IMG/VR virus record: IMGVR_UViG_3300020420_000008
Coordinates: 32,001 to 96,000 of that record
Direction: 5' to 3' (one strand)
Source: a virus
DNA: 64,000 nt
The notes below the pieces were generated by a model, which saw nothing but the letters and a program-made list of their open reading frames with translations, was not told the DNA's origin and did not search any database. Below, in pieces: positions 9,684 to 32,000 of the stretch. The translations under genes and the position numbers were made by a program. The number at the start of each line of letters is the position of its first letter. The stretch's first letter is position 1.

Positions 9684-10385
9684 ATGACAACTTTTATATC
9701 TGCACCTTTTGGAAACTATTTAAAATTCAAGAATGCTACGAGTGTAACTGGAACTTGGACATATCAACCTCGTCCAGGATTACTGAAGCAAATATTCAAG
9801 ACACTTAGATATACAAACCAAGGGTGGAGAAATAAGCTAGGTTTAAGAAATGCTGGAATAAATTATGGATTGAAGAAAACTAATTCTAATGAAGTATTGA
9901 GTATTGCCGCCATTGACAAATATGATTGGATAAACTTAGACTCCATAATTCCTTCTAATCAGAATATTGAATTGAATATAAGTTGTCCTAATCTAGAAGT
10001 TCACCAAGATACCACAAATTTTAAAGGTTTTGATTTATGGACAAATAGAATAGCTAAGTGGTGTATCATTAAAGTTCCTCCTATCGCATCATACGAACTA
10101 TTAGATAAGATAGTAGATTTAGGATTTACACAGATACATGCTAGTAATACTCTACCAACTGACAAAGGTGGATTGAGTGGGAAGGTATTATTACCTTATA
10201 CTAAAAGAATTATTGAATATCTTAAATCTAAATATAATCATGTAGAAGTGATCGCTGGTGGTGGAATACAGAAATCTTGGCACGCCGAATATTATAAAAA
10301 TCTTGGTGCTGATCACATAAGTATAGGCACAGCCTGTTTTAATCCTTATAAAGTATGGAAAATTGTTAACAAAAATGACTTTTGA
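9684..10385 (+). CDS. pyrD: dihydroorotate dehydrogenase-like FMN enzyme (class 1, compact)
   Basis: N.LGLRNAG, ELNISCPN, SNT, GGLSG, GGGI and IGT motifs. Confidence 0.8.
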   Translation: MTTFISAPFGNYLKFKNATSVTGTWTYQPRPGLLKQIFKTLRYTNQGWRNKLGLRNAGINYGLKKTNSNEVLSIAAIDKYDWINLDSIIPSNQNIELNISCPNLEVHQDTTNFKGFDLWTNRIAKWCIIKVPPIASYELLDKIVDLGFTQIHASNTLPTDKGGLSGKVLLPYTKRIIEYLKSKYNHVEVIAGGGIQKSWHAEYYKNLGADHISIGTACFNPYKVWKIVNKNDF

Positions 10386-10584
10386 AATATTTTCAATTAT
10401 ATGTTTAATAGCAACAGTTGCTATTGTACCAATATACATGTGGTTACTATACAATATTAAAAACTCATGGACATCGAACTCACATGACACTCAAGGTGGT
10501 AGTATGACTATACTTGAAAATGAAAAAGAACCAAAAGTAACTTGGATGGATCCGATAATTAAGAAAAATGATAAAAGAATATAA
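10375..10584 (+). CDS. small membrane protein
   Basis: one N-terminal hydrophobic segment. Confidence 0.5.
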   Translation: MTFEIFSIICLIATVAIVPIYMWLLYNIKNSWTSNSHDTQGGSMTILENEKEPKVTWMDPIIKKNDKRI

Positions 10585-11104
10585 AGTAAATCTATCAGAA
10601 GAACAAGAAGGTTTTATTGAATGGGTGGTAAACGAAGTGGACTTTCCTTTGTATTCATTCTTCTCTACTCACTCTCATGGAAATATAAATCCAGTATTCG
10701 GGCACATACTTAGAACAAGAATTGATGATGAAAATAGTGATGAGTGGGGTGCATCAAACTCTGATTTTACACATAAGTTTGATAATATATTCATGGATTT
10801 TTGTAAAGAATATGATATAAAATGCAATAGAATACTTAGATCAGCAGTTAATTTCACAACACATCAACCTAGTGATTCTGAATATTTTATTCATCGTGAT
10901 CATAATTTTTCACATAAAAACTTTCTCATGTATTTAAATGAGTGGACTGGTGGTGGAACTCGGTTCTTTGATGATGAGAAAAAACTTATAAAAACAGTAG
11001 GGCCACAGAAATATAAGGCAATTGTAAGTGATGGTGAACTTCATACACAGGAATATTGTGATCCACATCAAATAAGGGTTGTCTTAGTAGTGACATTTAA
11101 CTAA
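10568..11104 (+). CDS. 2OG-Fe(II) oxygenase
   Basis: HRD...MYLN..GGGT.F...H....R.VLV facial-triad pattern. Confidence 0.8.
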   Translation: MIKEYKVNLSEEQEGFIEWVVNEVDFPLYSFFSTHSHGNINPVFGHILRTRIDDENSDEWGASNSDFTHKFDNIFMDFCKEYDIKCNRILRSAVNFTTHQPSDSEYFIHRDHNFSHKNFLMYLNEWTGGGTRFFDDEKKLIKTVGPQKYKAIVSDGELHTQEYCDPHQIRVVLVVTFN

Positions 11105-13337: not shown

Positions 13338-13615
13338 TAGAACTAACAGAACGAGCAACAGAATATCTTAAAAAAGTTGGTAAGCCTAATGTATCACTTA
13401 CTGTAAAAGGTGGGGGTTGTTCAGGTTTTCAGTATGAATGGGGAACAACAGATGAACCAGCTACAGTTGCTAATCTATGGTTAAATCCTATCGCAGAGAT
13501 GTTTGTATTTGGTTGTACTATAGATTACGTAGAAGAACTTGGTGGTAGCTATTTAAAAGTAATTAACCCAAATGCAAAGGCGAGTTGCGGTTGTGGCGAG
13601 TCTTTCGCTGTATAA
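13334..13615 (+). CDS. iscA: A-type Fe-S carrier (IscA/HesB family)
   Basis: GGGCSGFQY and NPNAKASCGCGESF motifs. Confidence 0.9.
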   Translation: MIELTERATEYLKKVGKPNVSLTVKGGGCSGFQYEWGTTDEPATVANLWLNPIAEMFVFGCTIDYVEELGGSYLKVINPNAKASCGCGESFAV

Positions 13616-13642
13616 ATACATTGTGATGAACAAGGAGCATTA

Positions 13643-13978
13643 ATGCCTTTATATACATTTATGAACAAAGACACAGATGAAGTCTTTACAGAAATGATGT
13701 CTATCTCTCAGAGAGAAGAATATCTTTCGCAAAACCCAAACATCAGCCAAAAAATAGTGACAGTTAATATGATTAGTGGAAGCGGATTAAAGAATGATAA
13801 CGGTTGGAAAGAAAACCTCTCCCGTATTGCAGAAGCACACCCTAACTCAGCATTGAATGATAAGCTTGGTGGTAGAACTACCAAACATGCTAAAGCTATG
13901 TCAACACTAGAAAAACATGGAGTAAGAAAAGGGACTTATTCTAACATAAAGGAGAAGCCATTGTCAGCAAACGATTAA
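13643..13978 (+). CDS. FmdB-like T4-type regulator
   Basis: MPLYTF start, typical position upstream of phoH; late promoter TATAAATA at 13611-13618. Confidence 0.55.
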   Translation: MPLYTFMNKDTDEVFTEMMSISQREEYLSQNPNISQKIVTVNMISGSGLKNDNGWKENLSRIAEAHPNSALNDKLGGRTTKHAKAMSTLEKHGVRKGTYSNIKEKPLSAND

Positions 13979-13990
13979 CAAGGAGAATCC

Positions 13991-14731
13991 ATGTCAAACA
14001 ATCTCTCATATTTTCAAAATAATATTGTACCATTAACGAATAAACAAAAGAGAAAGCTAAAAAGAGTAAATACGGGTTTAAGAATAAAAGAAATAGAACC
14101 CATGACGAAAACGCAAGAGAGAGTATTTAATTCATATTATAGTGGTAAAAATATAATGTGTCATGGTGTAGCAGGAACAGGTAAAACATTTATCGCAACA
14201 TATCTAGCAACACAAGAAGTATTGAGTAATTATAATGACACACGTAGTTTACATATCATACGAAGTGTAGTACCAACAAGAGACATGGGATTTCTTCCTG
14301 GTAATCAAAGAGAGAAATCAAAAGTATACGAAGCACCTTACTATTCAATCTTTACTGAACTGTTTGAAAGAGGTGATGCTTATGAGATACTCAAAGGGCG
14401 TGAGCAAGTATACTTTACAACAACATCTTTCATAAGAGGCTTGACTATTAATGATGCGGTTGTTATAGTAGATGAATGTCAGAATATGACATATCATGAG
14501 TTAGATAGTATAATCACACGATTAGGTGATAATTGTAAAATAGTATTTTGTGGTGATTTTAGACAAAGCGATTTTAGATTTCAAGATGAACGAGAAGGTG
14601 TCTTAGAATTTATGAAAGTTATTAAAAGAATGAAGTCATTTGATTTTATAGAATTTGATAAACATGACATTGTAAGGAGTGATTTGGTGAAAGAATATAT
14701 TATTTCGAAACTCGATCTTGGAATGAGTTGA
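13991..14731 (+). CDS. phoH: PhoH-family ATPase
   Basis: GVAGTGKT, GFLPG, FIRGLT, DECQN and GDFRQSD motifs. Confidence 0.95.
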   Translation: MSNNLSYFQNNIVPLTNKQKRKLKRVNTGLRIKEIEPMTKTQERVFNSYYSGKNIMCHGVAGTGKTFIATYLATQEVLSNYNDTRSLHIIRSVVPTRDMGFLPGNQREKSKVYEAPYYSIFTELFERGDAYEILKGREQVYFTTTSFIRGLTINDAVVIVDECQNMTYHELDSIITRLGDNCKIVFCGDFRQSDFRFQDEREGVLEFMKVIKRMKSFDFIEFDKHDIVRSDLVKEYIISKLDLGMS

Positions 14732-24358: not shown

Positions 24359-24791
24359 TCTTGAATAGTTCTTTTTCTGTGAGTATCATAAACTTCCAGT
24401 TTCTGTCTTTACAATACTCTATTGCGTAATTCCACTTACTCTTATTTATACTCCATGTCTTTACCTCGTATAAATACTTCTTAGTTAGATTTTTTTGTGG
24501 AGTAGGTTCTTTGGTTTCTTTGTAAGGCTTTACTTCAACGACAATCGTTTCTTTTTGATTATGTTTATTGTTTACTTGAATAACGAAGTCGGGATAGTAT
24601 CTGTGCCAACGTCCATCAAGTGCAGATTTGTAAGGTATGATTAACTCTTCAGAAGCCCATTTAAGAACATTGGGATTTTGATCAAAGTAAACCATACAGT
24701 TTCTTTCCCACAAAGAACGATAAATAATATTTGTAGGATCACCTTTGTACTTTTTAGGAAACTTGGGATAGAACTTACCTTTATAACTCAT
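24342..24791 (-). CDS. gp4: head completion nuclease
   Basis: MSYKGKF.P..PKKYKGDP, YRSLWE, RYYPDF and EVKP motifs; start set at ATG 24791. Confidence 0.9.
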   Translation of the reverse strand: MSYKGKFYPKFPKKYKGDPTNIIYRSLWERNCMVYFDQNPNVLKWASEELIIPYKSALDGRWHRYYPDFVIQVNNKHNQKETIVVEVKPYKETKEPTPQKNLTKKYLYEVKTWSINKSKWNYAIEYCKDRNWKFMILTEKELFKNGNSF

Positions 24792-25929: not shown

Positions 25930-26495
25930 TGTCAAATTACTTTTCATTCTTTCCTACAACATCACATGATTTAAAAGATGTTAATAAAATTACTCAGGTA
26001 ACAAATATACTTAGACGTTTTAAATTTAAAACAAAAGTAAAAGATATTGTTGGCACATACTACGATTACACAATGCATGAAGGCGACAGAATGGACACTA
26101 TTGCAGAGAGATACTATGGCGATTCTAATCTAGCGTGGGTAATATTACATTTTAATGATATCGTTGATCCTTACTATGACTTACCTTTGTTTGGTAAAGA
26201 GTTCACTGATTACATTGTAGAAAAATACGGCTCAGTTACAACAGCGAGAGCGACTACAAAAAACTATTTTCAAATACTTGAACAAGAACAGCTACTAACT
26301 GACGGAACTAAAATACCAAAAAGACAAATAGTTGTAGATTTAAAAACATATAACACATTGTCAGCGTCTAATCGTGATTCAGAAACAGCTTATGATTTTG
26401 AAGAAAGATTGAACGAAGATAAAAAGAATCTAAAAATACTAGACAGAAGATATCTAAATCAATTAGTCAAAGAAGTTAAATCGGTACTAGCATAA
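25929..26495 (+). CDS. gp53: baseplate wedge LysM-like protein
   Basis: GDRMDTIAERYYGDSNLAWVIL..N.I.DP motif. Confidence 0.85.
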   Translation: MSNYFSFFPTTSHDLKDVNKITQVTNILRRFKFKTKVKDIVGTYYDYTMHEGDRMDTIAERYYGDSNLAWVILHFNDIVDPYYDLPLFGKEFTDYIVEKYGSVTTARATTKNYFQILEQEQLLTDGTKIPKRQIVVDLKTYNTLSASNRDSETAYDFEERLNEDKKNLKILDRRYLNQLVKEVKSVLA

Positions 26496-27862
26496 TGGTT
26501 TATCAAGATGCAATAATGCGTAAAGCTTCTGCATCAGGAGGCGATACATCAAAAGAGAACTATAGATTTCCTGGTGACTTTATACTAGAGCGTCTAGAAC
26601 TTATCGATAAAGAAGGTGTACCAACAGATATATCAGCATTAAGTTTAGAAGTAAACATACTTCAAAATTTATTTTTACCTTTCATGCAAATAGAAATAGC
26701 AGTAAACGACTCAGCTGGATTTGTAAATGCTGTGTCGAACGGACTATCTGGTGGTGAAATTATATACGTTTCTTTCAAAACTGCCGATCCAGAATTTGTT
26801 ATGAATAAAATGTTATTCGCAGTAAACGGTGTAAAAGAAAGAGTGAGAAATACTACAGGTAATGAAACATATGTTATAGAAGGTTATTCACTAGAACATT
26901 TCAACACCATAGATAAGAAGATATCAAAAGCATTCGGCTCTGGCTCAGGTAAAAAGATAAACGAAATTGTTCAAATAATATTTGATGAACACATCATGAC
27001 ACCTGAATTAAAATCAGTATATAACTTATATAAAAATGAAGGTAGAGAAGTATCGAAAACTGGTATACAAGGACTAACAACTACCACAGGTTTACATTCA
27101 TGTGTGATTCCTATGTACAATCCTATAGAAGCTATTCGTTATCTATGTGACGAAGGTGTAGATGATGATACCGCATCTAAACTATTATTCTATGAAACTT
27201 TTCTAGGCTTTCAATTTAGAAGTTTAGGTAAACTAATTAAAGAAGAACCAAAAGGCGAAGAGTTTCTCTATCACCCATCATCTTATAATACTGATTCATA
27301 TAAAGATGGTATGAATGCATACTTTATAAAATCTATAGATAGAATTAAAGAAAGCGATTTAACGGAACAGATGACAGATGGTTTATTCTCTGCTACAACG
27401 ATAGAAATTGATCCTCTCAGAAAAGATTTTAATAAAACTGTTTACAAATACCAAGACGAAGTTGAGAGATTTTCTAAATTAAATACTCTAACTATTCCTG
27501 GTGGTGCAGATGATAACGCAATTGTTCACTTGAAAACATCAAGAAGAGGACATGATGTCGATAGTGTATTTGCACCTGAAGCTCCTTTAGCTCAGAGAGA
27601 TGTTCTAAAGGATCCTTTTAGAGATAGTTATCTAAAACACTTGACAAATAATATAATTGTTATTACCATTCCAGGAAACTCAGCACTAAATGTAGGGGAT
27701 ACTATAGAATGTAAGTTCACTCCTGCAACATCGTTTGAAGAGGGAAAGGAAGAAGATAAATACACAAGTGGTAAATATTTAATAACTAAATGTAGACACG
27801 TTATAACTAAGCAAATATATGATACAGTCTTAGAATGCGTTAAAGATACAGGTATAGAATAA
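26495..27862 (+). CDS. baseplate hub protein (gp27-like)
   Basis: IPGNSALNVGD and SGKYLITKCRH motifs; position after gp53. Confidence 0.6.
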   Translation: MVYQDAIMRKASASGGDTSKENYRFPGDFILERLELIDKEGVPTDISALSLEVNILQNLFLPFMQIEIAVNDSAGFVNAVSNGLSGGEIIYVSFKTADPEFVMNKMLFAVNGVKERVRNTTGNETYVIEGYSLEHFNTIDKKISKAFGSGSGKKINEIVQIIFDEHIMTPELKSVYNLYKNEGREVSKTGIQGLTTTTGLHSCVIPMYNPIEAIRYLCDEGVDDDTASKLLFYETFLGFQFRSLGKLIKEEPKGEEFLYHPSSYNTDSYKDGMNAYFIKSIDRIKESDLTEQMTDGLFSATTIEIDPLRKDFNKTVYKYQDEVERFSKLNTLTIPGGADDNAIVHLKTSRRGHDVDSVFAPEAPLAQRDVLKDPFRDSYLKHLTNNIIVITIPGNSALNVGDTIECKFTPATSFEEGKEEDKYTSGKYLITKCRHVITKQIYDTVLECVKDTGIE

Positions 27863-28725
27863 TGATACTATCAAAATCAGAGTACGAAACTTTAAATAGT
27901 TTTCAAGAGTTAGAAGAGAAACTAATATTATTTAACAATGGTAAAAATTATGGGCAAATTGTTTTTATGGCTGGTGGTGCTGGTTCAGGTAAAGGTTTTG
28001 CGATTCAGAATTTCATGCAAGGCGAGAAATTTAAGGTACGAGATGTTGATGAATGGAAGAAGGCTCTTATCAAGCTTGCGAAAATGAAAGACAGTGATTC
28101 AGAACTAGCTAAACTGAATCTAAGAAATCCTGAAGATGTATTTAAATTACACACTATCGTAAGAGAAAAAGGTATCAAAAATAAAACACTTGACATGTTG
28201 TTAACAGGTGCTAAGAAAGATAGATTACCAAACATACTTTTTGATATCACTATGAAAGATAGTAATGATATAAGTGATGTTGCGCCTAAACTCATAGAAG
28301 CTGGTTATGAGCCTAAAAATATTCATCTAGTATGGGTATTAACAAGTTACAAACAGGCGGCAAAAGCCAACAAAGAAAGAGATAGAGTTGTACCTGATGC
28401 AATACTTTTTCAGTCGCACCAAAAGGCTGCCATGAATATGTTACAGAGAATTAAATCTATGGCTCTTGGTAATAGAACCGGTATTGGTAGAAAGTATGTA
28501 GATGGACAAGTACATGTTATTTTGAATAACAGAGAGAAAACAATATTTCACCCAGGATATGAAGGCAAAGCTGTCAAAGATTTTTCTTATGTTACGATTA
28601 AGAAGAGTGGACAAAACTATTTAAAAGATGCTGATATACTAGCTACTGTTATAAGATGGGTTCTAGCAAACTCACCATTATCACCTCAAAGTGTCAGTGC
28701 TTTAAAGAAAAGGTTTAAATTGTAA
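27862..28725 (+). CDS. P-loop kinase/NTPase (zeta-toxin/AAA_33-like), probable internal head protein
   Basis: GGAGSGKG Walker A, LFDIT Walker B, N.ERDRVVP lid; N-terminal QELEEK resembles a prohead-protease site. Confidence 0.65.
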   Translation: MILSKSEYETLNSFQELEEKLILFNNGKNYGQIVFMAGGAGSGKGFAIQNFMQGEKFKVRDVDEWKKALIKLAKMKDSDSELAKLNLRNPEDVFKLHTIVREKGIKNKTLDMLLTGAKKDRLPNILFDITMKDSNDISDVAPKLIEAGYEPKNIHLVWVLTSYKQAAKANKERDRVVPDAILFQSHQKAAMNMLQRIKSMALGNRTGIGRKYVDGQVHVILNNREKTIFHPGYEGKAVKDFSYVTIKKSGQNYLKDADILATVIRWVLANSPLSPQSVSALKKRFKL

Positions 28726-29954
28726 TGTTAAATTATAATAGTTATATAAGAGAGCAGTATAGGAACTTACAAGAAAAAGTATGGAAACCTAATATGGGCG
28801 ACTTAGCTGAACCTATTCTTGCATGTGGTGTGGCGGCAAAGTTTGCAAATCCCGATGCTATTGTAACAAGAACAGCTATTGAAAAACTTTTAAGAAAAGT
28901 AATTAAAAAGAATCCAGAAAATATAGATGGTAAACCTGGAGGTGAATTAAAAGTAAAAGATAATATCTTTCTTAGAGTTGCAATACGAAGAAGAGAATGG
29001 GAATGGTTGAAAGATGAAAGTCATTGGGAACTCATTGATTGGCAGTTCAAAGCAGTAGCACAATACTGTAATGATAAAAGTAGAAGTGTACAAGGTAAAA
29101 TCGATCTGATGCAAGGTAAGGGTAGACGATTACACTTAATAGCAAAGGCATATATGTTGAATGGTAGAAAAGATGAGATACGTGTCGATGCTGATGGTAC
29201 AGGTGATCAGAAAGGTACAAAAGCTGATATTAAGATTACACTGAATGGTAAGAAAGCAAACATGCAGATGTCACTCAAAGTAAAAGGTGGTGATCAGATA
29301 GGACAGAAAGCTGGTGTACCATTTGATAGACAGTATGAGATATTTAAAGAATTGGGTATTGATGTTGGACCTGCAAGAAAAGAATATGATGAAGCAGTAA
29401 AAGAAATAGATTTAGGTTTTTACTTTTTAGACAGAGCAGAAGTATCAAAAGGTAAAGATGATAAAAGACTACCCAAAGCTATAGAGATGCAAAAGCAATT
29501 GAGAGAAGCTAACTCTAAATCATATAGACTGGCGGCAAAAATTTGCAAAGCAAAGATGGACGCTGGTGATGAAAAGTTTGTGGGTAAATTAGCTGAATTT
29601 TTAATAAATTACGGAAGTCTAGGTGATAAACAAATAGAGATAATAACATTAACAACGAAAGGTTTCAAGAAAGCCAAGTTCGGTAGAAACTTTAAGAAAC
29701 AATTATTAGAATACTATCCAAAACTAAAGGTTATATTCAATATGGACGATGGAGATCCTTCTATTGAGTTCTATGATCCTGAAATAGGAGATAGATCAAG
29801 TACAGAAGCTAGATTGTTTCGTATACGTGGTAAAACACTATATGAATCGAAAACGAAGAAGATAGATGGTAAGACAAAAAAAATCTTTCCATTGTATGTG
29901 AGAAACTTAGTTGAAGCTGGTGGATTATTATACAAACTAGCAGTAGATAGTTAA
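28725..29954 (+). CDS. putative PD-(D/E)XK restriction-like nuclease, probable internal head protein
   Basis: TKADIKITLNGKKANMQMSLK (K-x-D...S-x-K); Lys-rich; MLNYNSYIRE...LQEK resembles a capsid-targeting sequence. Confidence 0.5.
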   Translation: MLNYNSYIREQYRNLQEKVWKPNMGDLAEPILACGVAAKFANPDAIVTRTAIEKLLRKVIKKNPENIDGKPGGELKVKDNIFLRVAIRRREWEWLKDESHWELIDWQFKAVAQYCNDKSRSVQGKIDLMQGKGRRLHLIAKAYMLNGRKDEIRVDADGTGDQKGTKADIKITLNGKKANMQMSLKVKGGDQIGQKAGVPFDRQYEIFKELGIDVGPARKEYDEAVKEIDLGFYFLDRAEVSKGKDDKRLPKAIEMQKQLREANSKSYRLAAKICKAKMDAGDEKFVGKLAEFLINYGSLGDKQIEIITLTTKGFKKAKFGRNFKKQLLEYYPKLKVIFNMDDGDPSIEFYDPEIGDRSSTEARLFRIRGKTLYESKTKKIDGKTKKIFPLYVRNLVEAGGLLYKLAVDS

Positions 29955-29964
29955 AGGAGATAAT

Positions 29965-30171
29965 ATGGCAGAAGAATTTTTACAAGAAATAAAAGAACCA
30001 AAACACACAGATGATCCTCATGATTCAGTAGGTAAAGAATCTCTTGATGGATATATTGAAATAGATATTTTCAAACCAGGAAATAAACCAAAAGATAGAC
30101 ATGTTTCACAAGTAACAATCAAAGATGGGAAGAGGATAGTTGGTGATGAAAAACTTCCTAGGGATAAATGA
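29965..30171 (+). CDS. hypothetical protein
   Basis: AAGGAG RBS. Confidence 0.55.
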   Translation: MAEEFLQEIKEPKHTDDPHDSVGKESLDGYIEIDIFKPGNKPKDRHVSQVTIKDGKRIVGDEKLPRDK

Positions 30172-31648
30172 TTTTATATGGTTCTTCGGGGTTGTCGAAG
30201 ACCGTAATGATCCTGTACAACTCGGAAGGTTGCGTGTCAGGTGTTATGGTTGGCACACCGATGATAAGAACGAAATACCTACTGACAGTCTTCCATGGGC
30301 AATACCTATCCAAGATGTCACTTCCGCAGGCGTCAGTGGAAAAGGTAAATCGCCTACGGGAATCCTTGAAGGATCGTGGGTTATTGGATTCTTTGCAGAC
30401 GGAAAGAAAGCACAACAACCATACATAATGGGAACAATAGCTGGAGCGCCTAAGTTTTCAGCAGATAGTTCAAGAGGTTTCAATGATCCAAATGGTAAAT
30501 ATCCTTTATATGTTGATGAGAGTGATGTTAACAAACTTGCGAGAGGCACTCCTACTATTACAATTGATAGTGATGGCACTATTGGAGCGCCTGAAGCGTC
30601 TTATAAAGCCGAGTACCCCTACAATCATGTAACGGAAACTGAGAGCGGACATGTCATTGAAGTTGATGACACACCTAATGCAGAACGTATACAAGTCTTT
30701 CATAAATCAGGAACAGTAATAGAAATACAACCTAGTGGCGATGTAGTCATACAACAAAAGAATAATTTTCAGACTATATCTGGTGATAATAATATACACA
30801 CTACTGGTAACTTAAATTATTTTGTTGATGGTGATATAAACTTCAATACAAGAGGAAACTTTAATGTTACAACATTTAATAATGTTGACATCAAATCAAA
30901 ACGAATAGATTTAAATAGTACAACAGGTGATTTGTATACACCAGAACTTATAGATGATGCTATATTATTTGAAACCAATATTGTAAAACTAAAACCTGAA
31001 GAAACACAAATAGAACCAGATGTAGAGTATCCAGATAATCCAGAACAAGTAGAACAAACTGACGGTAAGAATCCAGAAGATGTAAAATATCCAGAGAAAA
31101 CGCCAGCTACTTGTGGTTCACCTGATAACCCACACAGAAATCCAATTGATGTTGCAACAGAACTGATGAACGAAGGTGGTTGGAAAGAAACAGGTAGTAA
31201 TCCTAAAATTAAGTTTCTTTGGGACGAGATTGGTTATAATGGTTCTCAATACGCAGACAGAACAGCGTGGTGTGCTGTGTTTGCTGGTGCAGTACTCAAG
31301 CGTTCAGGTAATAAGTACATACAAACAGCATCATCGCAAGCATATTCACAATATGGTACTGAAGTAGCAACAGCACAAGGTGATAAAATAGATTTGACAA
31401 ATCTCAAAAGAGGAGATATATTGGTATTTCAAAGAGGTGGTTCTGCAAAAGGAACTGGACACGTTGCATTTGCCACAGGTAACTTCACAGATACGCATAT
31501 AGAAGTTATTGGCGGTAATCAAAGTAATAGTATTACACAAAAGAGATATAAACTTAGAGGTGGTTTCTTCTGGAGATTAAGAACAGTCAGAAGAGCGGTA
31601 GCATGTGACGATGGTACCACACCAGCTCCAACATCTACAGCAATATAA
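30146..31648 (+). CDS. gp5: baseplate hub/spike gp5 with C-terminal NlpC/P60-CHAP-like (TIGR02594-type) domain
   Basis: GVVEDRNDP..LGRLRVRC.G.H OB fold; YPYNHV.ETESGH; WCAVF...GHVAF...GGNQ. Confidence 0.9.
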   Translation: MKNFLGINDFIWFFGVVEDRNDPVQLGRLRVRCYGWHTDDKNEIPTDSLPWAIPIQDVTSAGVSGKGKSPTGILEGSWVIGFFADGKKAQQPYIMGTIAGAPKFSADSSRGFNDPNGKYPLYVDESDVNKLARGTPTITIDSDGTIGAPEASYKAEYPYNHVTETESGHVIEVDDTPNAERIQVFHKSGTVIEIQPSGDVVIQQKNNFQTISGDNNIHTTGNLNYFVDGDINFNTRGNFNVTTFNNVDIKSKRIDLNSTTGDLYTPELIDDAILFETNIVKLKPEETQIEPDVEYPDNPEQVEQTDGKNPEDVKYPEKTPATCGSPDNPHRNPIDVATELMNEGGWKETGSNPKIKFLWDEIGYNGSQYADRTAWCAVFAGAVLKRSGNKYIQTASSQAYSQYGTEVATAQGDKIDLTNLKRGDILVFQRGGSAKGTGHVAFATGNFTDTHIEVIGGNQSNSITQKRYKLRGGFFWRLRTVRRAVACDDGTTPAPTSTAI

Positions 31649-31950: not shown

Positions 31951-32000
31951 TAGTTATAAATAGACAATAGTATTTTATCATTATATGAAGGAAGAGTCAA

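Follow-up and report, generated by a model that had tools for sequence, protein, structure and literature searches.

A predicted kinase and a restriction-like nuclease with candidate capsid-targeting tags in the baseplate operon of a marine T4-like phage

We analyzed a stretch of viral DNA of 64,000 nucleotides (the window), which comprises bases 32001–96000 of the 146.6-kb IMG/VR virus record IMGVR_UViG_3300020420_000008 (35% G+C; estimated completeness of 76%). The relatives of this genome are marine T4-like contigs of the pelagimyophage type. In its baseplate operon, two adjacent open reading frames (ORFs) lie between a tail gene at the position of gp27 and a gp5-like gene. ORF A appears to encode a P-loop kinase, ORF B a nuclease similar to type II restriction enzymes, and both have N-terminal sequences reminiscent of the peptides that target proteins to the head of phage T4. 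An initial annotation, made from the sequence alone, had proposed the gene pair, both enzyme types, and the N-terminal tags, and had also raised the hypothesis that ORF B's protein cuts at GCHGCD and that this caused the near-absence of the motif from the genome. Our analysis confirms the anatomy and the enzyme classes, strengthens the case for delivery from the capsid, and refutes the causal link to the loss of the motif. Overall, we see about an even chance that the two genes encode a late-expressed, capsid-tagged, injected pair that cuts foreign DNA. The features of the two genes are (window coordinates; a slash marks a candidate cleavage site):

27862–28725, + strand: ORF A, predicted zeta-toxin/polynucleotide-kinase-like P-loop kinase of 287 amino acids (from Pfam, phrog, and Foldseek)
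27862–27918, + strand: ORF A residues 1–19, candidate propeptide ending in L-E-E/K (L17, E19, and K20 are invariant in 21 homologs)
27973–27996, + strand: ORF A residues 38–45, Walker A P-loop GGAGSGKG (invariant in the family)
28725–29954, + strand: ORF B, predicted restriction-endonuclease-like PD-(D/E)XK protein of 409 amino acids (from an AlphaFold 2 model, VIA, Atlas, and phrog_33928)
28725–28775, + strand: ORF B residues 1–17, candidate capsid-targeting propeptide with two [IL]-x-E sites (IRE/Q and LQE/K)
28791–28811, + strand: N23-x-G-D-x-x-E29 of ORF B, in the first core helix; E29 (139/140) is the candidate acidic catalytic residue
29217–29279, + strand: T165-K-A-D168-I-K...Q-M-S183-L-K185 of ORF B, candidate D...SxK active-site strands (from residue conservation)

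The identification of ORF A as a zeta-toxin-like P-loop kinase holds. The protein passes the Pfam cutoff for Zeta_toxin (PF06414; 24.4 bits versus 22.3 bits, E = 2e-5), and it belongs to phrog_5268 (E = 2e-52), a family without an assigned function. The family has more than 2000 homologs at 90% clustering, many of which carry PF06414, and it is found in Slopekvirus/RB43-type coliphages, Aeromonas phages, and other T4-like phages. Besides the P-loop, D61/D63 and R173/R175 are invariant among the homologs. When we compared the AlphaFold model of ORF A (predicted local distance difference test score, or pLDDT, of 77) to known structures with Foldseek, the hits were zeta toxin, PezT, AvrRxo1, and polynucleotide kinases (E = 5e-7 to 1e-4). 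The matches to 3q8x, 1gvn, and 2p5t had E = 5e-7 to 1e-5. Among the polynucleotide kinases, from Clostridium thermocellum and T4, 4gp7 had E = 5e-5 and a template modeling (TM) score of 0.59 by target, and 1ly1 had a TM score of 0.72 by target. Sequence searches against solved structures gave chance-level hits only, for ORF A as well as for ORF B and DUF6267 (a family discussed below).

Among related contigs, no protein of the cluster is better conserved than ORF A (75–99.7% identity). Its neighbors are ORF B and the tail gene, which encodes a protein of 455 amino acids, and there is no antitoxin partner of the epsilon or PezA type. ORF A also lacks a phosphatase domain; the genome has a ligase-like DUF6267 gene at another location, and in other phages DUF6267 adjoins homologs of ORF B. 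In our favored explanation, ORF A would be an active phosphotransferase of the zeta-toxin/polynucleotide-kinase type.

ORF B is lysine-rich (13.7%), and both proteins are basic, with isoelectric points of 9.5–9.9 (9.5 for ORF B). A profile search of 1.84 billion representatives placed ORF B in a family that comprises 660 or more clusters at 50% identity; among the strong matches listed, no sequence bridges this family to a named restriction family. AlphaFold gave a confident model for ORF B (pLDDT of 87 and predicted TM score of 0.83). The initial annotation had suggested using Foldseek with such a model to look for a PD-(D/E)XK fold. Foldseek with the full model gave no PDB hits at E ≤ 0.001, and the fold emerged from an exhaustive VIA search and from Atlas, which are the only sources of restriction-enzyme matches for ORF B. 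The top hits from VIA were MspI (Z = 6.8, 199 aligned residues, root-mean-square deviation of 4.6) and HinP1I (Z = 6.7), followed by the Dna2 nuclease domain, HhaI (Z = 5.1), AddA, a Cas4-family protein, ThaI, Hjc, NhoI, and BsaWI. All of these are PD-(D/E)XK proteins.

Because these Z values are modest, we sought independent support for the fold. The nearest neighbors of ORF B by Atlas's language model are viral clusters with RE_HaeIII or RE_HpaII (score of 0.93, with 184–191 shared features), and Atlas's shape search also returned RE_HaeIII (TM score of 0.59) and HpaII. Furthermore, the putative catalytic residues are nearly invariant. ORF B reads TKADI-x12-MSLK at residues 165–185, and when we aligned 140 diverged representatives of the family with hmmalign, K166 was conserved in 139, D168 in all 140, S183 in 136, and K185 in 137. 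In the model, D168 immediately precedes a strand (residues 169–173), and the SxK motif is within the strand at 181–186. PD-(D/E)XK enzymes of the D...SxK/QxK type have this arrangement, with an acidic residue supplied by helix 1. Thus, the K-x-D...S-x-K core that had been noticed in the sequence is backed by the modeled fold, by the language-model neighbors, and by the conserved residues. We conclude that ORF B is predicted to be a restriction-enzyme-like PD-(D/E)XK nuclease from a new sequence family. The fold of the model is closest, at a modest level of similarity, to the type II restriction enzymes MspI, HinP1I, HaeIII, and HpaII.

A natural fusion protein ties the kinase and nuclease functions together. 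In P0340 (612 amino acids), a kinase similar to ORF A (E = 2e-9 over 244 residues) is fused to an ORF B-like domain that retains the conserved residues. P0340 is encoded by a metagenomic contig, 15 bp after a D12 adenine methyltransferase (L019:247-2876 for both genes), which resembles the layout of a restriction-modification (R-M) system. Similarly, a D12 methyltransferase adjoins the 3' side of gp187 of ACG-2014f, which is another homolog of ORF B. We saw a methyltransferase beside these two distant homologs only, and there is none beside ORF B in the window.

To put ORF B in context, we surveyed 51 IMG/VR loci as well as others, and found two recurring arrangements. In about 20 loci of the pelagimyophage type, the gene order is gp53, the gp27-position gene, ORF A, ORF B, a small ORF, and gp5. 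In loci of the cyanophage type, ORF B comes after gp41 (and MazG), next to DUF6267 and a "cytidylyltransferase" with a HIGH motif. DUF6267 has a KxDG motif, so it may be of the ligase type. The genome we studied has both of these genes, outside of the window. Its DUF6267 (409 amino acids, with a KWDG motif) is at genome positions 9867–11096 (L006:4868-6097). Its HIGH-motif nucleotidyltransferase ("cytidylyltransferase", FGRMNPPTIGHEKL) is at about 13441–14010 and is a short, untagged form. In another contig, the gp41 helicase gene and the ORF B homolog flank a gene with a precomputed Pfam match to DruA (of Druantia; L013:1576-2685).

A prediction of the complex of ORF A and ORF B scored 0.11, versus a mark of 0.32, which speaks neither for nor against binding. 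A blastn search with the locus against a phage collection gave no match. The best explanation of the fusion and the contexts is that the two proteins form a functionally linked pair of enzymes and are not parts of the baseplate.

Both proteins begin with a sequence that resembles the capsid-targeting sequence (CTS) of T4. In the T4 record, ipII and ipIII begin with MKTYQEFIAE/A, and ipI begins with MKTFKEFTSTTTPVSTITE/A (MKTFKEFT...ITE/A). The cleavage rule for the prohead protease is [IL]-x-E. ORF B begins with MLNYNSYIRE/QYRNLQE/K; its homologs begin with MKTFKTFIKEAK, MLDFKQFLSEAN, or MKTFKTYLEEAA, and one allele has ...RKTFKSFIAEE/K. ORF A begins with MILSKSEYETLNSFQELEE/K and its homologs with MKTFSQYLSLQEK; the homolog KP15_200 begins with MKSFKQFTESTLTE/A, much like T4's IPI. 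In the models, the N-terminal helices of both proteins are detached and of low confidence (for ORF A, the pLDDT is below 50 at residues 13–18). The DUF6267 protein of this genome begins with MKGFTSFLAEAK, which is also similar to T4's CTS.

To quantify this similarity, we searched the first 45 residues of proteins for the pattern [FY]xx[FY][ILM]xE. In four families (ORF A, ORF B, DUF6267, and the cytidylyltransferase), 32 of 71 proteins matched, versus 6 of 413 other ORFs from the same loci (p = 2e-24). The matches came from ORF B (19/40), DUF6267 (8/12), and the cytidylyltransferase (5/8), with none from ORF A (0/11). Several of the six other ORFs that bear the tag are neighboring small enzymes. 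Within the same family, tagged and untagged forms coexist. We also saw the tag on small proteins at L011:11074-11679, L009:10733-11326, and L045:300-908. One tagged small protein has a HAD-type DIDET motif (MLSFKSYLNEK...FDIDETM), which hints at a wider set of tagged enzymes. So the comparison supports the earlier claim that the N-termini are like the capsid-targeting sequences of T4, with the caveat that none of the 11 ORF A proteins fits the strict pattern.

Evidence from other phages bears on what the tag might do. Among the proteins detected in purified virions of cyanophage S-SM1 is the tagged cytidylyltransferase T4-GC190 (MKKFSAFLNEAE/R), and the untagged DUF6267 protein of this phage (T4-GC71) was not flagged as a virion protein (PMC3037559). 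T4 itself packages and delivers EcoRI and staphylococcal nuclease if these are fused to a CTS (PMC9026906). The genome encodes a gp21-like protease at positions 115343–115798 (Peptidase_S77, E = 2.6e-38). Late promoter boxes are found 20–41 nt upstream of the first gene of the cassette in about 10 loci, and 36 nt upstream of the DUF6267 gene of this genome. The box TATAAATA is also found about 50 nt upstream of its untagged cytidylyltransferase, whose cyanophage ortholog T4-GC190 is a known virion protein. In the literature, we found no prior description of DUF6267, nor of capsid-targeting sequences in cyanophages or pelagiphages. From these sequence comparisons and analogies, we think that ORF A and ORF B are somewhat more apt to be packaged in the head and injected than to stay behind. 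We rate this lower for ORF A, because its N-terminus at this locus fits the pattern loosely.

The surrounding operon points to late expression of both genes. Its other features are:

24469–24476, + strand: T4-type late promoter box TATAAATA, 5' of the gp48-like gene, at the start of the transcription unit that includes both genes
26495–27862, + strand: tail/hub gene at the gp27 position, 455 amino acids (phrog_350, "tail protein", E = 1e-61)
29965–30171, + strand: small ORF of 68 amino acids, between ORF B and gp5
30140–31648, + strand: gp5-like hub/lysozyme gene with OB and CHAP domains (Gp5_OB, E = 4.5e-31, plus CHAP)

The next copy of TATAAATA on the + strand is at 31955, and there is no terminator-like site between 24000 and 32500. 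Late expression, which had been claimed earlier, is thus indicated by the promoter motif at 24469. Genes similar to gp48 and gp53 lie upstream of the pair. The stop codon of the gp27-position gene and the start codon of ORF A overlap by 1 nt (TAATG, at 27862), as do the stop codon of ORF A and the start codon of ORF B (at 28725), so translational coupling is a fair reading. The coordinates and overlaps of this two-gene insert are as first described, except that the upstream gene is gp27-like only by position: Pfam gave no match for it, and phrog_350 is its sole match. The 68-amino-acid ORF is kept in relatives (51–67 amino acids, 37–65% identity), and it overlaps the predicted TTG start of gp5 by about 30 nt. 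Either it encodes a small hub-associated protein or the start of gp5 was miscalled.

ORF B has been exchanged between phage backbones. In L040, the proteins of the surrounding genes are nearly identical to those of the window (95.7% for gp53, 97.6% for the gp27-position protein, 99.7% for ORF A, and 98.2% for gp5), and ORF B is only 34.5% identical, with its catalytic motifs intact. In L017, ORF A is 94.8% identical and ORF B is 46.9% identical. Conversely, L020 and L022 have distant backbones (about 53% identity for the gp27-position protein), yet their ORF B proteins are 87–91% identical to that of the window. So the slot holds at least three classes of alleles, which move between backbones, as expected for a gene that is involved in conflict. 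The slot itself is constant: ORF B occupies it in all of the roughly 20 related loci, without sporadic absence.

These observations suggest the following model. ORF A and ORF B would be made late in infection and would enter the core of the prohead by means of their N-terminal tags. The gp21-like protease would trim them, and the trimmed proteins would be packaged alongside the DNA and injected together with it. This would let them act ahead of all phage gene expression. Given the exchange of its alleles among backbones, ORF B would be the variable component in an arms race, and it would most likely cut foreign DNA, from either the host or a competing phage. The kinase would either share the substrate of ORF B or work in a complex with it.

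Several points weigh against this model. First, neither ORF B nor 46 of its relatives match any model in Pfam, NCBIfam, or PADLOC, with no Pfam model of a restriction enzyme matching at E ≤ 1, and the structural matches of ORF B are modest (Z below 8). Second, a nuclease in the capsid would sit beside the phage's own genome, which calls for self-protection, and we identified no mechanism for this. Third, ends made by a PD-(D/E)XK enzyme already bear a 5' phosphate, so it is not obvious what a polynucleotide kinase would do after the cut. Fourth, the N-termini of the pelagimyophage ORF A proteins fit the tag only loosely. Finally, cyanophage homologs of ORF B without the tag are found behind gp41 in the replication module, which implies that the ORF B family also works without being packaged.

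This last point leads to the alternative that we take most seriously, although we consider it rather improbable: the proteins might be an unpackaged module that processes or repairs nucleic acids inside the cell late in infection. The kinase would heal ends, alongside the nuclease, the ligase-like DUF6267, and the nucleotidyltransferase, and the tag would have some other purpose, such as docking to a clamp, a scaffold, or a replisome protein. This would fit with the association of ORF B homologs with DUF6267 (KxDG) and the HIGH-motif nucleotidyltransferase, behind gp41/MazG, in many phages. It would also fit with the similarity of ORF A to polynucleotide kinases, with the HAD-like protein with the same tag nearby in L011, and with the existence of untagged forms. 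However, the tag is close to the experimentally defined capsid-targeting sequence of T4 and always ends with [IL]-x-E; a tagged cytidylyltransferase is present in virions; and, in this genome, the genes are in a structural late operon.

The roles of the two proteins within the pair could also differ from what we propose. ORF A could be a small-molecule kinase effector of the zeta/AvrRxo1 type (acting on, for example, UDP-GlcNAc or NAD), with ORF B as a non-catalytic partner for DNA binding or targeting. The best Foldseek matches of ORF A are indeed zeta, PezT, and AvrRxo1, and conservation within the cluster is highest for ORF A. But E29, D168, S183, and K185 are nearly invariant in 140 diverged representatives, which suggests that ORF B is catalytic, and the locus has no antitoxin-like partner, so we view this alternative as unlikely.

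We give slightly less weight still to the idea that ORF B is a selfish, homing-type PD-(D/E)XK endonuclease in a cassette between essential genes, whose mosaicism arose by homing and marker exclusion. The seg and mob genes of T4 are homing-type cassettes of a comparable kind, and ORF B is a non-structural insert within a conserved operon whose alleles are shuffled between backbones. ORF B also has a weak VIA match to the homing endonuclease I-Ssp6803I (Z = 3.3). However, homing cassettes would be sporadic, and the same slot is filled in all of the roughly 20 related loci. Also, ORF B is always paired with the highly conserved ORF A, and the family forms conserved cassettes in other groups of phages.

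Finally, we considered whether ORF B cuts GCHGCD and the phage lost these sites to protect itself. The motif occurs just once in 64 kb (and the GCWGC sites, of which there are 4, all read GGCWGCC), ORF B is restriction-enzyme-like, and R-M systems are reported to be rare in SAR11 hosts (PMC7029224). Across syntenic regions of 10–21 kb, we counted the GCHGCD hits on both strands relative to the GCNGC sites:

Window: 0/18, reference allele of ORF B
L040 and L041: 0/13, different allele (34.5% identity)
L017: 4/20, different allele (46.9% identity)
L020: 19/19, same allele (87–91% identity)
L022: 13/13, same allele (87–91% identity)
L015: 26/29, ORF B 74% identical to the allele of L017

The depletion of GCHGCD tracks the phage backbone and not the allele of ORF B. 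L020 and L022 have not purged the GCSGC half of the motif despite having the same allele as the window, while L040 and L041 lack GCHGCD with another allele. L015 and L017 have ORF B proteins that are 74% identical, yet they differ greatly in their counts. The GCWGC half is purged in every locus of the pelagimyophage type, whichever allele is present, and GGCC and CGCG show the same pattern across loci as GCHGCD does.

Moreover, GCHGCD is just one of over 20 purged motifs. Genome-wide, the observed and expected counts are 0/50 for CGCG and 7/110 for GGCC, and HGACC hardly occurs. Of the six-base palindromes with an expected count of 5 or more, 18 are missing altogether, including AGATCT (0/100), CTTAAG (0/47), GAATTC (0/45), CTGCAG (0/32), AACGTT (0/31), and GCATGC (0/22). 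Some of the purges are common to all of the pelagimyophage-type loci (GCWGC, HGACC, CTTAAG, GAATTC, and AACGTT) and others are specific to lineages (GCCGCD, GGCC, and CGCG). One nuclease cannot explain the loss of the 18 palindromes along with CGCG, GGCC, and HGACC, so we reject the link to ORF B: it is very improbable that self-avoidance of GCHGCD by this phage accounts for the purge.

Another idea, prompted by the neighbors of one ORF B homolog, was that 7-deazaguanine modification at GGC underlies the "GG rescue" of purged sites. We dropped this idea for this record (estimated as 76% complete), which has no match to TGT/DpdA, PTPS, or GTP cyclohydrolase I. On a different contig (L011:3439-5508, from a 186-kb Tara contig), genes for a QueE-like protein, PTPS (QueD), and GTP cyclohydrolase I (FolE) are directly upstream of the ORF B homolog, and this gene content suggests that the L011 phage has 7-deazaguanine modification of its DNA.

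If the tags work as they do in T4, then the pair would be the first natural example of a restriction-type nuclease and a kinase that travel inside a phage head and are delivered along with its DNA. Two large uncharacterized families, phrog_5268 and the ORF B family, would thereby gain a class of functions, and both would be linked to DUF6267 and to the "core" cytidylyltransferase of cyanophages that is known from virions. In any case, a tempting but wrong explanation for the genome's motif purges has been removed. More broadly, we speculate that marine T4-like phages use T4-type tags to load a variable toolkit of nucleic-acid enzymes into their heads and inject it, although we consider this unlikely. 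The toolkit might include the restriction-like nuclease, the zeta/polynucleotide-kinase-like kinase, the ligase-like DUF6267, the NMNAT-like nucleotidyltransferase, and a HAD-like phosphatase. Phages would exchange nuclease alleles between backbones as weapons against the DNA of hosts or rival phages, and the broad avoidance of palindromes in pelagimyophage genomes, whose hosts are said to have few R-M systems, might in part be self-avoidance of the packaged nucleases of the population.

The closest known systems include the internal proteins IPI, IPII, and IPIII of T4, along with Alt, which are processed by gp21 and injected. They share with the pair an N-terminal peptide of about 10–20 residues (M-K-x-[FY]-x-x-F-[IL]-x-E/A), a late promoter, a basic protein, a gp21-like protease, and a locus that is polymorphic between close relatives. 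In contrast to the internal proteins, which are small inhibitors or bind DNA, the candidate cargo here is two large enzymes (32 and 47 kDa), and their genes are in a baseplate operon.

Similarly, ORF B shares with MspI/HinP1I/HhaI, RE_HaeIII, and RE_HpaII a PD-(D/E)XK core in which the first helix carries an acidic residue, an aspartate precedes strand 2, and strand 3 carries (S/Q/N)-x-K. Some distant homologs of ORF B also have a DNA methyltransferase next to them. Unlike those enzymes, ORF B has no Pfam match, is encoded by a phage with no methyltransferase at the locus, and has an additional C-terminal domain of about 150 residues. ORF A has the P-loop fold, the Walker A motif, the downstream aspartate, and the lid arginines in common with zeta toxin/PezT/AvrRxo1 and with the polynucleotide kinases of T4 and Clostridium thermocellum, but it lacks both the antitoxin partner and the fused 3'-phosphatase, and it is paired, or elsewhere fused, with a nuclease-like domain. 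Finally, in the CTS-EcoRI and CTS-staphylococcal nuclease fusions that the Black laboratory engineered into T4 heads, a capsid-targeting tag brings a nuclease into the head, and infection then delivers it. That system is artificial, and the pair described here would be its natural counterpart.

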